Assembly (NCBI GenBank): GCA_050302075.1
Contig: JBNLAH010000004.1
Coordinates: forward strand, 135,885-199,884
Direction of reading: 5' to 3'
Length of the DNA: 64,000 bases
DNA from: Parachlamydiales bacterium
GTDB taxonomy: Bacteria; Chlamydiota; Chlamydiia; Chlamydiales; SM23-39
Both the position numbers and the translations under genes were made by a program. This document shows positions 10,687 through 13,485 of the stretch, piece by piece. Each line of letters opens with the position of its first letter. The stretch's first letter is position 1. The notes beneath the pieces were generated by a model that made no database searches, was not told the origin of the DNA, and worked only from the letters and a program-made list of their open reading frames with translations.

Positions 10687-13485
10687 TTATTTTAAATAGG
10701 CCCTAGAAAAATCAATACCACCCACGTCATCAAAAACATAACCGGATATGGCAGAATTGCTAGCATATTTTTGCAATCCGCTAAAAAGCGGAATAGCTAA
10801 AAGCTCTTCTAAAAAAAAATCTAGCGCCTTAGTTAAATATTTTTCCTTTTTTTGCCTATTAAAGTTGCACACATTTTTCATAAGCAAAGAGTTTTCTGAA
10901 GGGTCAGAGCATATTGAATCAACGTAGCTAAATTTCTGAAATGAGTCATAAAAAGATGGAAAATATGAAGTCTCAAAGCAACCTCCTGCCTGAAACAATC
11001 CATTTTCTAAAGAACCTCTAAAAGAATTCCAGTCTTTTTCGATTAAATTTACATTAATTCCCAAAATAGCTTTCCATGTTTTAGAAATATATTCAGCTAA
11101 ATCTTTCATTTTGGGATTGATAAAATAACTTAATTCAATTGGAGGAAATGTCTTTAAATTTAAACCAATTTCTTTAAGACCGATTTCAAACTGCTGCTTA
11201 GCTTTTTGAGGAGAATAATCTATATTTTCTGAATATATCTTTTCAGAGAATGGAAGGTTTAAAGGCTTTTCAGAATAGATATCTTGATAAATTTTTTTTC
11301 GGTCCAAACAAAGGCTTAAGGCTTTTCTGATATGTTTTGATTTTAAATGCAAAGGCTTTTTATTTATATAAAGCCAAAAAGTATGTGAGGCATCTCTTTT
11401 TTGTAAAATGCCCTTGTCTGCCAATTTTTTTTCCATATGAAGTGGGACATGGGCGAGCGGAGCTCCAATCCAGTCGATTTTATTTTTCTCAAAGTGACTA
11501 TAAATTACAGATGGATCTGAGGTAAATAAAATGTTAATAAAATCAAAGTAAATGCCTTTTTTTTCCCAAAAATATGGGTTTTTCTCAAGCTTTAAAAAAC
11601 TAGAATTAAAATCTGAGACAATAAAAGAACCATTGAAAATTGAAGGCTCTTTGTTCATATCATACGAGGGATAAAACAACGGTTTAGACAGTTTGTGCAA
11701 AAAATGCTGATCAGGCCGCACTAGCTTAACTTCTAACGTATCCTCATCAATCGCATTTACACCTAAAGTGTTTTGAGAAGTTTGTCCATCTAAGATTTTT
11801 TTTCCATTTTTAATTACTGAAAAGTCGTTGGCTAAAAATTCTTTACCTAATCTGATGTTTTCCTTCCAACTTTGCTCGAAATGAAAAGCTGTTACTTTTT
11901 CTCCATTGCTCCAACGACTTGGCCTAAGTTTAAAATAGTAAATTTTATTATCCGAACTAACTTCATAGGACTCAGCTGCAGCTAAGCTAACTAGTCCATG
12001 TTGATCTACTCTAGTAAGCCCTTCAAAAAGAGCTCGATATATTGTAATACACCTTATATCAGAATATATATAACAAGGGTTTAAAGTAGCTGGAGCCCCT
12101 TCATTAAATGCTAAGCGAAGTGTTCTTTTTTGGTATTTATTATCAATATTTGATGAAGATAATTGATTTATAATTCTATCAATACATTTACCGGAAGGAT
12201 CTAATATCGCTAAATAGCTTGAATTACCAATTTCCAAATATGCGTAGCTTACTTTAGGTGAAGCACTTATTGGTTTTATATGGGATTTTAAAAAAGTACC
12301 ATTTTGAGATTTTATGACAAAAGCTTTCTTAGTTTCTCTTAGGAAGAATTCGCTTTGGTCATTTTGGACTACTTTAGAAAAAGCTTTAAATAAAGCTTCC
12401 ACCTGATTTACTTCGATAGTCAGCTGGGTCTCTATAGGCTTTAAAGAATAAAACAGCCTACTTGCAAAGAAATTGAAGTTTGAGATAACAGGATTAAGTT
12501 TTAGCTTTATTTTTTCAAAGACATCTTCTTGCTTAATTAATAGCCCGCCATTGAAATCCCTGAAATGACCAATAATGTCCTCAAGTAAAACAGTGATAGA
12601 TTTTCTTATAGAAAGCAAATTGATCGGTTGGTCAATTCTATCTATGGGAAAATAAAGCGAGAATACTGCAGATGCTGCAAATAGATCTCCTTGATTTACA
12701 AAACTAGTATGAAGAGTTAAAGAAATAAATGCTGGAAGATTAGCTGTAATCTTTTTTAAAAGATCCCTTTTTTGGGGATATGCCATGTAAATAATAAATT
12801 CCAAAGCATTTGTTGTTTGTCCCTTAAAATTGATACTTATCTGAGGAATATCATTTTCGCAACTTAGCTCTTTTTTTAAGATATTGATTTGTCTAAATGC
12901 ATCTTCATAGTGATAAGGCCAAAATATCTCAGGACAAAAACTATTAACTTCATATGGTATTTGTTTTTCTAAGACAGTTTGTAAATTTTTAACCTCTTTT
13001 AAGCTTAGTCCCTTTCCCCTTATTTTTTGAATTTCCAAATAGCAAAAAATGTATGATTCTTCTACTGACTGCCAGGTGTAAAATGAATTTGGAATTTCTT
13101 TTATGCCTGTGATATTATTTTGAAGAATTTTTATAATGTCCTTTTCATTGAAAAATTCTGATTGTCTATCATAGGTTAAAATAATTGAGACACAGATTTT
13201 AGAATCAATTTTAAATACATTAACTATGATCAATCTTTGATTATCATTTTTATTTCTAAGGGCTTTTTTAATTCTTTTTTGTAAAAAGTACTGAGATAAC
13301 AATATTTTTATTAAGTGATTTTGAGATCTCATTTCAAAAAACAAATCATCTTTAGCAGCTAATAACTTGAAATATCCCCTAGTTAAACTTTCGTCAAAAA
13401 GATTTGGAAACTTTTCTGCCCTTTTAAGTAACCCTTCTACCTGATTTAAACCTTTAATGTTCATAACCTTCTGAATAAAAAACAA
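10687..13485 (-). CDS. Fusion of a ~450-aa unknown N-terminal domain and a C-terminal OppA-family domain
   Basis: C-half LFEGLTR, WSNGEKVTAFHF, KNPYFW; N-half homologous to 56167..58275; no signal peptide. Confidence 0.85.
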   Translation of the reverse strand: MFFIQKVMNIKGLNQVEGLLKRAEKFPNLFDESLTRGYFKLLAAKDDLFFEMRSQNHLIKILLSQYFLQKRIKKALRNKNDNQRLIIVNVFKIDSKICVSIILTYDRQSEFFNEKDIIKILQNNITGIKEIPNSFYTWQSVEESYIFCYLEIQKIRGKGLSLKEVKNLQTVLEKQIPYEVNSFCPEIFWPYHYEDAFRQINILKKELSCENDIPQISINFKGQTTNALEFIIYMAYPQKRDLLKKITANLPAFISLTLHTSFVNQGDLFAASAVFSLYFPIDRIDQPINLLSIRKSITVLLEDIIGHFRDFNGGLLIKQEDVFEKIKLKLNPVISNFNFFASRLFYSLKPIETQLTIEVNQVEALFKAFSKVVQNDQSEFFLRETKKAFVIKSQNGTFLKSHIKPISASPKVSYAYLEIGNSSYLAILDPSGKCIDRIINQLSSSNIDNKYQKRTLRLAFNEGAPATLNPCYIYSDIRCITIYRALFEGLTRVDQHGLVSLAAAESYEVSSDNKIYYFKLRPSRWSNGEKVTAFHFEQSWKENIRLGKEFLANDFSVIKNGKKILDGQTSQNTLGVNAIDEDTLEVKLVRPDQHFLHKLSKPLFYPSYDMNKEPSIFNGSFIVSDFNSSFLKLEKNPYFWEKKGIYFDFINILFTSDPSVIYSHFEKNKIDWIGAPLAHVPLHMEKKLADKGILQKRDASHTFWLYINKKPLHLKSKHIRKALSLCLDRKKIYQDIYSEKPLNLPFSEKIYSENIDYSPQKAKQQFEIGLKEIGLNLKTFPPIELSYFINPKMKDLAEYISKTWKAILGINVNLIEKDWNSFRGSLENGLFQAGGCFETSYFPSFYDSFQKFSYVDSICSDPSENSLLMKNVCNFNRQKKEKYLTKALDFFLEELLAIPLFSGLQKYASNSAISGYVFDDVGGIDFSRAYLK

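Follow-up and report, generated by a model that had tools for sequence, protein, structure and literature searches.

The minus-strand open reading frame at 10687..13485 of the window (the whole stretch of 64,000 nucleotides that was analysed) encodes a leaderless protein in which an N-terminal part, predicted to be an ACT-like regulatory array, is joined to an OppA-type peptide-binding domain. This gene fusion is genuine and conserved. We tentatively propose that the protein, which is probably cytoplasmic, serves as an intracellular sensor linking peptide supply to amino-acid status, a proposal to which we give slightly less than an even chance.

The fused gene and its neighbours

Read from TTG 13485, the frame codes for 932 amino acids. 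The likelier start is ATG 13464, giving a protein of 925 aa, since AGAAGG is found 5 nt upstream of it and since this start agrees with the 925-aa database form (P0001). Eight further database proteins of 698-929 aa contain both the array and the OppA part, the same genome encodes a 59%-identical paralogue, and seven other genomes yielded eight intact orthologues (908-929 aa). In the tree, a clade of nine rows (SH-aLRT 99) holds the target together with fusions from two chlamydial families, all of 908-932 aa. Since the fusion is kept in other database proteins, in the paralogue and in the orthologues, what a sequence-only reading of this DNA had described as a fusion is not an artefact joining two genes. 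The fused protein has no output domain, and a promoter scan returned counts at chance (36 found, 35.8 expected). Literature searches of limited coverage retrieved no paper on an array-OppA fusion and none on a cytoplasmic OppA in chlamydiae.

Residues 455-932 (10690..12123, minus strand) form the leaderless OppA-type (SBP family 5) domain. The Pfam model SBP_bac_5 (PF00496) matches residues 502-831 (E 4.9e-43, 148 bits, cut-off 32.4), and NCBIfam OppA equivalogs stay far under their cut-off (91.8 vs 947). The best solved relative is B. subtilis OppA 8ARE (E 2.2e-43), and a profile search of solved structures with an alignment of the protein (A1) retrieved nothing but OppA-type chains, each matched by the C-terminal part. 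The residues that anchor peptide termini in E. coli OppA, given as Asp-419 and Arg-413 in PMC3173086, fall in columns occupied by Tyr841 and Gly835 in the target, in an alignment of ~20-25% identity; 31 unfused chlamydial OppAs likewise have no Asp and Arg in those columns. Among unfused chlamydial OppAs, 51 positions show conservation of 85% or more, and the target deviates at 7 of them (e.g., D844 to S and W859 to C). Because of these seven differences and the Tyr and Gly in the anchor columns, peptide binding by the fused domain may be altered or lost.

The fused gene is followed, 21 bp downstream and on the same minus strand, by a gene (9121..10665) for a 514-aa OppA that carries a lipoprotein-type signal (MNKKYLFLITFIIAITSFSC) and ranks with the nearest unfused paralogues of the OppA domain in the fusion. 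Another 21 bp downstream lies a third minus-strand gene (7678..9099), whose 473-aa OppA product lacks a signal peptide and starts at the mature position; a hairpin with a 14-bp stem (7635..7666, minus strand), terminator-like with a weak T tail, comes right after it. The fused OppA part itself begins (RTLRLAFNEGAPATLNP) at the mature-start position of the neighbouring lipoprotein OppA (LELIFQEGDPPSLHP). After the fused paralogue, its closest relatives are the oppA genes next to the two fusions (E 6e-111 and 5e-110), and the next oppA, which is unlinked, follows at E 3e-66. An unfused lipoprotein oppA is present in 15 of 20 fused-gene loci of other genomes and at three of the seven fused genes of the window genome. 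No permease gene was found in these seven loci; the only adjacent BPD_transp_1 pair of the genome (C4:117341-118793) is located ~28 kb from the target gene.

The shared N-terminal domain and its stand-alone relatives

The N-terminal ~450 aa (12136..13485, minus strand) are shared with a stand-alone protein of 702 aa encoded on the plus strand at 56167..58275. BLASTP aligned residues 24-406 of the fusion collinearly with residues 248-649 of the 702-aa protein (112 bits, E 1e-29, 105/411 or 26% identical). Thus, the collinear relation that the sequence-only reading had drawn from a handful of motifs, all of which fall inside this alignment, is significant, and the domain does occur in stand-alone proteins as well. 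Pfam returned nothing above cut-off in residues 1-450 of the fusion, no Pfam or NCBIfam model matched the 702-aa protein, and where any source named the family of this ~440-aa domain, the only label was 'hypothetical protein'.

The array family is chlamydial, occurring in most of the environmental chlamydiae sampled. It makes up 618 representative clusters at 50% identity and was present in 168 of the 200 genomes sampled in a co-occurrence check across the phylum. One family of small genomes (f4), which is probably that of the pathogenic Chlamydiaceae, gave no array match in 28 genomes with a protein query and none in five with a profile. The window genome has nine copies, the most per genome, of which seven are fused to OppA. 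The stand-alone members fall into two orthologous groups with differing gene neighbours, and in the tree they form one clade separate from the fusions. In an alignment of 52 family members, R309, D310, N312, G313 and G314 of the motif GHFRDFNGG (residues 306-314; 12544..12570, minus strand) are invariant, and the polar set E151, E194, D212, R294, R309, D310 and N312 is invariant across all architectures. Such conservation fits a putative binding site.

The AlphaFold model of the shared domain taken from the fusion has a pLDDT of 91.2 and contains three units of bbabba topology; its first ~20 residues are of low confidence (pLDDT 62-75). Judged from the order of DSSP elements along the chain in these predicted structures, the fusion has three ACT*-like units, each with a helical motif ahead of it, and the 702-aa protein (model pLDDT 84.8) has four, namely an extra N-terminal unit and the three shared ones. 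On the minus strand, unit 2 (residues 215-305) corresponds to 12571..12843, unit 3 (residues 380-446) to 12148..12348 and the segment ahead of unit 2 to 12949..13230. When solved structures were searched by Foldseek, the best match of the array model was 7jsr (E 9.2e-8, prob 1.00), a structure of the Mycobacterium smegmatis 180-kDa NAD-glutamate dehydrogenase L-GDH180 (PDB 7JSR, 7A1D and 9HV5), and the same entry was the best match of the 702-aa model (E 3.3e-7). According to the L-GDH180 paper, the 701 residues at the N-terminus of 7JSR had been modelled ab initio and afterwards fitted.

A VIA search against all representatives also placed L-GDH180 first, with unit 2 (model residues 196-306) matching residues 500-610 of 7a1d (Z 8.3, rmsd 3.4, 106 aligned), and ACT-like domains came next. 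A second VIA search matched model residues 15-178 to residues 463-611 of 9hv5 (Z 9.3, rmsd 3.8, 138 aligned), a match that includes the segment ahead of unit 2; this segment also matched the ACT-like domain of maize R (Z 7.7). These fold matches are moderate (Z 8-9), and their TM-scores are low (0.08-0.22) because the multi-domain arrangement differs. Language-model features, which serve as a lead only, linked the domain to clusters with GDH_HM1, GDH_ACT1-3 and GDH_2nd at scores of 0.76-0.86. The earlier guess of ACT-like repeats therefore agrees with both the predicted structure and the fold searches, and the N-terminal part is predicted to be an ACT-like regulatory array.

We have also looked for a link between the array and glutamate dehydrogenase families at the level of sequence, and none was found. 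The fusion had no Pfam match to GDH_ACT1-3 or GDH_HM1-3, and no GDH_ACT or GDH_HM family was among the 25 families listed, of 57 matched, for 71 stand-alone members. A scan for GDH_ACT3 (PF21077) matched none of 120 chlamydial genomes and did match the control genome, Caulobacter. The array is thus likened to L-GDH180 by its predicted fold, and shared ancestry is not implied.

The two stand-alone groups are exemplified by the 702-aa protein, whose gene directly follows a lipoprotein oppA in five of six other genomes, and by a 645-aa protein encoded behind aspartate kinase (AK). The sole AK of the window genome is a protein of 268 aa (NF005154, E 5e-88, model positions 3-236 of 407), and its gene is located 28 bp upstream of the 645-aa array gene. 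Among 14 fetched loci, 13 have a 645-type array directly downstream of an ACT-less AK; by coordinates, the same order is found in at least 44 other genomes, the gap in most loci being 0-100 bp. Of five AK open frames in family f4, four have the full length, at 443-465 aa. One genome (G111) keeps the 645-type gene with no AK among the matches listed, and in the family to which the window belongs, no AK is among the matches listed for 13 of 28 genomes; therefore, control of AK cannot be the sole role of the array. The idea that the 645-aa array (A4) is the split-off ACT part of AK gained no support at the sequence level from an hhalign comparison with full-length f4 AK (probability 0.2). A complex prediction for the short AK (A3) with A4 returned no answer (score 0.00, mark 0.32) and speaks neither for nor against an interaction. 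A literature search of limited coverage retrieved no paper on an ACT-less chlamydial aspartate kinase.

Location and possible function of the fused protein

The N-terminus of the fusion (MNIKGLNQVEGLLKRAEKFPNLFDES) is hydrophilic, with no hydrophobic stretch, and the maximum of N-terminal 12-residue hydropathy is below 2.0 in 69 of the 70 homologues listed. The absence of a signal peptide, one of the original observations on this frame, is thus borne out, and the protein, being leaderless, is probably cytoplasmic. Indirect support for this location comes from a stand-alone family member, which is operonic with the cytoplasmic aspartate kinase. Counted against it is the fact that the neighbours of 702-type genes are exported lipoproteins, which are across the membrane.

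One can imagine that the fusion is exported independently of a Sec signal, e.g., by type III secretion, so that OppA works outside the cytoplasm as an ordinary binding protein and the array is an anchor or a region for export or chaperone binding. The exact coincidence of the OppA start with the mature position of the neighbouring lipoprotein and the placement of fused genes in oppA clusters would fit this, as would the poorly modelled first residues; chlamydial type III substrates are not known to have a recognisable signal. Export nevertheless seems unlikely to us: neither the target nor its homologues have a hydrophobic leader, the sister array is operonic with an ATP-using cytoplasmic enzyme, the array is predicted to be a large, confidently folded domain, and the sole adjacent BPD_transp_1 permease pair is distant from every fused gene.

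About as improbable is capture of a substrate in the cytoplasm, in which the clamshell would pass a peptide-like molecule to a MATE-type exporter or an M20 dipeptidase and sense nothing. Here, the argument comes from gene neighbourhoods. A MatE-family transporter is encoded in 11 of 20 fused-gene loci of other genomes and adjoins four of the seven fused genes of the window genome, each time together with a small secreted protein of 186-190 aa; the gene of the 59%-identical paralogue is followed by genes for OppA, an M20 dipeptidase (NF006053, E 7e-134), LanC and LanB. However, gene neighbourhood by itself is weak evidence, no MATE or peptidase gene is present at the locus of the target, and we know of no binding-protein-dependent exporter that works by such a handover.

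The sequence-only reading had suggested a possible signalling or enzyme pair made up of the fusion and the 702-aa protein. In a version of this, the two proteins would join through their arrays in one signalling complex, with the OppA ligand gating one half. ACT-type domains often associate side by side, and according to the paper on L-GDH180 the subunit contacts of that enzyme are formed by ACT*2 and ACT*3; all family-invariant residues are common to the two proteins. Yet with nine paralogues in the genome no specific pairing follows, the two genes are 43 kb apart, and the stand-alone clade is separate from the fusions. These proteins are two of nine paralogues, and the stand-alone groups have different neighbours. 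The suggested pair is left unsupported, and we regard it as rather improbable. Equally doubtful is an enzymatic array, in which the invariant polar residues would be a catalytic site for an amino acid or an OppA-held peptide: lipoate/biotin ligase catalytic domains do appear among the weaker fold matches (Z 6-7, rmsd 4-5), but ACT-type regulatory units give the best matches and the most compact ones, and no catalytic family of Pfam or NCBIfam matched the array by sequence.

We return, therefore, to the reading of the fusion as an intracellular sensor of peptide supply. The array would be an allosteric and oligomerisation scaffold, and the 645-aa sister, encoded behind an AK that has no ACT domains, would regulate this kinase in trans. 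In the fusion, the OppA clamshell would take the place held by the catalytic domain in L-GDH180, so ligand binding at one part would alter the state of the other. The fused domain would descend from the lipoprotein oppA genes beside it and would therefore meet, inside the cell, the class of ligand that their products capture outside.

Chlamydiae rely on imported peptides and amino acids, and their aspartate pathway, entered through aspartate kinase and leading to diaminopimelate and lysine, supplies the diaminopimelate of peptidoglycan. As a long shot, we can imagine that environmental chlamydiae removed the ACT domains of AK, moved its control to a free multi-ACT hub, duplicated the hub and joined copies to leaderless OppA; the fusions would then act in the cytoplasm as receptors, either for oligopeptides taken up from outside or for recycled murein peptides, and would tune the synthesis of aspartate-family compounds and cell-wall precursors via array-array contacts. 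Whatever the function, a large family that matched no Pfam or NCBIfam model gains a testable identity, that of an ACT-like regulatory array, and two biochemical handles: the ACT-less AK upstream of one subfamily and the OppA fused to or beside the others. The full-length kinase of family f4, in which no array was matched, marks a clear regulatory difference inside the phylum. If true, a cytoplasmic reader of peptides and amino acids would bear on how obligate intracellular bacteria match their growth to host nutrient supply.

Comparison with known systems

Regulators of the SgrR type sense through a binding-protein domain of family 5 that is cytoplasmic, and they have an N-terminal DNA-binding (winged-helix) domain. 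The analogy with SgrR, raised when the frame was first read, extends to the leaderless SBP family 5 domain in an apparently cytoplasmic protein and stops there: the partner of the fused OppA is a predicted ACT-like array, and no DNA-binding family of Pfam or NCBIfam, HTH families included, was matched.

Aspartate kinases usually have C-terminal ACT domains, and in some, of the Corynebacterium and Bacillus type, the ACT part is present as a separate beta subunit. At the 645-type loci, too, a predicted ACT-type module is encoded with the kinase, whose gene ends after the catalytic domain. Unlike the ACT domains of other aspartate kinases, the chlamydial partner is a predicted four-unit array of 620-700 aa with no detectable sequence similarity to them.

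The C-terminal 480 aa of the fusion match B. subtilis OppA (8ARE, above) and DppE (8AY0, E 7.5e-38) over the whole length. Compared with OppA, DppE and the cluster C proteins of family 5, the fusion has no signal peptide or lipobox, carries 450 additional N-terminal residues and has no adjacent permease or ATPase genes.

For the array, the closest fold is the N-terminal regulatory segment of L-GDH180, which tops the Foldseek search and both VIA searches. The L-GDH180 paper describes ACT* units of bbabba topology with helical motifs between them, a pattern close to that of our models; no PAS unit is evident in the order of secondary-structure elements of the latter. In L-GDH180, the regulatory segment is followed by the catalytic and C-terminal domains of a glutamate dehydrogenase, whereas the predicted chlamydial array is followed either by an OppA domain or by nothing.

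The fused gene and its relatives

The gene at 10687..13485 (minus strand) encodes 932 amino acids if it is started at TTG; the likelier true start is the ATG at 13464, which has AGAAGG five bases upstream and matches the 925-aa database protein P0001. The sequence-only reading had described the product as a signal-less OppA fusion, and indeed its N-terminus is hydrophilic and, in a Pfam scan, residues 502-831 match SBP_bac_5 (E 4.9e-43). The boundary to the OppA part, near residue 455, falls exactly at the position where the adjacent lipoprotein OppA starts its mature sequence. 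No Pfam family scored above the cut-off in residues 1-450, and the stand-alone 702-aa protein encoded at 56167..58275 (plus strand) had zero matches among Pfam and NCBIfam models. As had been claimed, the two proteins align by BLASTP in a single collinear stretch of 411 columns (target residues 24-406 and residues 248-649 of the 702-aa protein; 26% identity, 112 bits, E 1e-29). This shared domain is referred to as the array. An artefact joining two genes is ruled out by further fused proteins in the database and seven fused frames in the same genome.

A word-indexed search with residues 1-450 retrieved ten proteins, nine with PF00496 (906-929 aa, save one 698-aa partial protein) and a tenth, of 692 aa, without it. 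The window's genome (1.84 Mb in 89 contigs) contains nine open frames with the array, seven fused to OppA (926-1144 aa) and two stand-alone (702 and 645 aa). Exhaustive HMMER searching of 1.84 billion cluster representatives gave 618 proteins at E <= 0.001, of which 490 reach <= 1e-10 and 55 reach <= 1e-30. By length there are three groups: one of about 900-1000 aa, matched at the N-terminus; one of about 610-720 aa, matched from about 160-260 residues onwards; and one of about 1130-1180 aa, matched from about 180-200 residues onwards.

The array family is widespread in the phylum: the 450-aa query (E <= 1e-5) matched in 168 of the 200 genomes sampled and in 107 of 114 genera. None of the 28 genomes (1.0-1.4 Mb) of the small-genome family f4, which we infer from the size and number of its genomes to be Chlamydiaceae, matched this query, and a 645-type profile search of five f4 genomes found no array. 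When one genome per species was scanned for a family pattern, 552 stretches were confirmed. Most of the 80 best records are chlamydial by title (Parachlamydiaceae, Waddliaceae, Rhabdochlamydia and others); the remainder are MAGs entered as "uncultured bacterium" or "bacterium" with no further typing, and nine carry the label Verrucomicrobia/Verrucomicrobiae or Acidobacteria. The only names seen for the family were "hypothetical protein" and, for fusions, "peptide ABC transporter substrate-binding protein"; a literature search of limited coverage found nothing on the array family or its OppA fusion.

Predicted fold and conserved residues

The AlphaFold model of target residues 1-450 (alignment of 61 sequences, mean pLDDT 91.2) starts with helices up to residue 78. 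These are followed by unit 1 (strands 86-93 and 96-104, helix 114-124, strands 128-139 and 145-154, helix 162-179), a helix at 193-205, unit 2 (strands 215-223 and 227-237, helix 242-249, strands 255-263 and 270-280, helix 290-305), four helices spanning 314-374 and unit 3 (strands 380-393, helices 396-407, strands 413-428, helix 433-446). In a Foldseek comparison with the PDB the first match was 7jsr_A (E 9.2e-8, probability 1.00), the 180-kDa glutamate dehydrogenase of M. smegmatis (L-GDH180). Just three matches reached E <= 0.001 and TM-scores were low, as expected when many domains differ in arrangement. VIA-align applied to the Foldseek list gave 9hv5 (Z 9.3, rmsd 3.8 over 138 residues, model 15-178 against chain 463-611) and the maize R ACT-like domain (Z 7.7, rmsd 2.5, 79 residues). 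A Foldseek-independent search of 48,161 representative chains put L-GDH180 first (7a1d_A, Z 8.3, rmsd 3.4 over 106 residues, model 196-306 against chain 500-610), above ACT-like and ACT domains and lipoate/biotin ligases (Z 6-7, worse rmsd), all Z values for the array being in the middling range on the tool's own scale. 7JSR is a weaker reference because its residues 1-701 were modelled ab initio and then fitted, as the L-GDH180 paper states; the cryo-EM entries resolve ACT*3, one of the ACT-like units of the enzyme.

The model of the 702-aa protein (71 sequences, pLDDT 84.8) shows four ACT-like units, with 7jsr as its best Foldseek match (E 3.3e-7 over 732 columns). In a language-model look-up, unnamed chlamydial clusters came top (0.92-0.93), and all named clusters thereafter carried N-terminal families of GDH, namely GDH_2nd, GDH_HM1 and GDH_ACT1-3 (0.76-0.86, graded by the tool as a lead only). 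When 71 stand-alone members were compared with Pfam, no family matched more than 11 members (best E 0.027, among the best 25 of 57 families), and the GDH_ACT3 model, which matches the control genome Caulobacter, matched none of 120 chlamydial genomes. Predicted fold and architecture support an array of ACT-like units. What had been offered as speculation about "ACT-like repeats" is thus borne out at the level of models, the suggested AlphaFold/Foldseek comparison ranking an L-GDH180 segment first.

We compared 52 rows of the shared domain from the window's genome and 40 fetched loci, a 250-residue envelope being required. Invariant in all 52 are E151, E194, D212, P214, R294, R309, D310, N312, G313, G314 and F345; the target is off consensus at three positions conserved in at least 90% (N192H, A293I, E342S). 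The polar invariants are found at the junctions that follow units 1 and 2, a placement in keeping with a putative ligand site between units. Of 51 positions with at least 85% conservation among 31 unfused chlamydial OppAs, the OppA part of the target retains 44 and departs from seven, with D844S and W859C among the changes. Asp-419 and Arg-413 anchor the peptide ends in E. coli OppA, according to PMC3173086; in a distant alignment, the target has Tyr and Gly in these columns, and the unfused chlamydial OppAs likewise have neither Asp nor Arg there.

Origin and gene neighbours

In a quick maximum-likelihood tree of the 52 rows (SH-aLRT support), all 22 stand-alone forms make one clade (99), within which the 702 type (100) is nested among forms linked to aspartate kinase (AK). 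The target groups with other fusions of 908-932 aa, nine members in all, drawn from families f1 (its own) and f3 (99); another fused clade (99) contains forms of about 1150 aa as well as of about 970-1000 aa, and the four MATE-linked copies of the window's genome lie on a long branch. After the fused paralogue, the closest relatives of the target's OppA domain are the oppA genes beside these two fusions (E 6e-111 and 5e-110), the next unlinked oppA scoring E 3e-66. Since the linked genes are the most similar, sequence comparison points to an origin of the fused domain from local oppA copies.

Downstream of the target, at 21-bp spacings, are a lipoprotein OppA, a leaderless OppA and then a hairpin. 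The leaderless paralogue (7678..9099, minus strand, 473 aa) lacks both a signal peptide and the N-terminal array. Its sequence opens with MDNKKQSLRLVFQEGDLPSLHP at the mature-protein position, the gap to the lipoprotein OppA gene being 21 bp, and it is the second leaderless OppA of this operon-like cluster. Eight tandem ORFs of 136-251 aa occupy 547..6735 (minus strand), six of them having N-termini MAAAISSQREISIHSDR and variants in common. Pfam and NCBIfam give no match for seven of the eight ORFs; the one at 2116..2868 hits Mito_carr (E 1.1e-12), a chlamydial protein of mitochondrial-carrier type.

The target's 59%-identical paralogue is followed by oppA, M20 dipeptidase, AAA-type kinase, LanC and LanB. 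At this locus (L009, G000:C1:300001-320000 of the same genome; 99..4437, minus strand), a 1004-aa LanB-type lantibiotic dehydratase (E 6.5e-98) and a 435-aa LanC-like protein are encoded on the same strand as, and downstream of, the fusion, oppA and M20 dipeptidase; judged by these matches, it is a lanthipeptide-type locus in a chlamydial genome.

The 1144-aa fusion has two lipoprotein oppA genes downstream. The four 953-971-aa fusions all have genes for a MatE-family transporter and for a small secreted protein as neighbours, so that such a transporter adjoins four of the seven fused genes; the genome's only adjacent ABC permease (BPD_transp_1) pair is elsewhere on the contig. Twenty fused-gene loci of other genomes contain unfused oppA in 15 cases and a MATE-type gene in 11. 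The recurrent transporter (L011-L014 in the window's genome, L043-L053 in others) is about 445-497 aa long with a small ORF alongside. The stretch 22903..24624 resembles a degenerate version of the cassette made up of small secreted protein, MATE transporter and fused OppA: it holds fragments of the small protein (96 aa) and of MatE (147 aa), and 370 aa from the C-terminal part of OppA with no array.

Genes of the 702 type lie directly downstream of oppA in five of six loci of other genomes (11-bp overlaps in two), and these OppAs carry lipoprotein signals; the window's 702-aa gene has no oppA neighbour in the window. The 645-aa gene is located 28 bp downstream of a 268-aa AK, the sole AK of the genome. 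This AK matches NF005154 (E 5e-88) only at model positions 3-236 of 407 and therefore lacks the ACT region. Upstream of this AK and array pair, in locus L015 (G000:C6:36001-55000; 11251..14070, plus strand), genes for arginine decarboxylase and an arginase-family (agmatinase-type) protein are oriented divergently from it. Among 20 loci fetched around stand-alone genes of other genomes, 14 carry the 645 type, 13 of them with an AK of 260-284 aa directly upstream on the same strand; in the exception, genome G111, the gene is beside rpe and the genome has no AK match. All 14 aligned AKs end shortly past the catalytic domain. In at least 44 other genomes (rows compared by eye), AK and array matches share a contig and are separated by less than 2 kb. 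Among the matches listed, AKs from outside f4 have frames of about 245-340 aa; those in five f4 genomes are 443, 446, 464, 465 and 347 aa, and one f4 AK, which matches AA_kinase and weakly ACT_7, adjoins asd. In family f1 the array family is present in 28 of 28 genomes, 13 of which gave no AK match at E <= 1e-10.

Proposed role and known systems

One can envisage the array as a cytoplasmic allosteric and oligomerisation scaffold. The stand-alone 645-aa form would regulate the ACT-less AK in trans; in the fusion, the OppA clamshell would take the place of the regulated domain and couple binding of a peptide-like ligand with that of a small metabolite, making the fusion a sensor or buffer tied to peptide uptake. 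We put this mechanism forward tentatively, as slightly more apt to fail than to hold. The anatomical part by itself is much firmer. The make-up, conservation, range and gene neighbours of the fusion and array family are observed; the fold is predicted. Against the mechanism, the fusion has no output domain, structural scores are moderate, and a 645-type gene persists in a genome without detectable AK. Also counted against it are the neighbours of the 702 type, which are exported proteins, and the alternative that the fusion might be secreted rather than cytoplasmic.

The likeness of the array to L-GDH180 is one of predicted structure, whereas no sequence link of the target and stand-alone arrays to the GDH families was found. 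Both folds are of kinds already known; their combination and the array family are undescribed.
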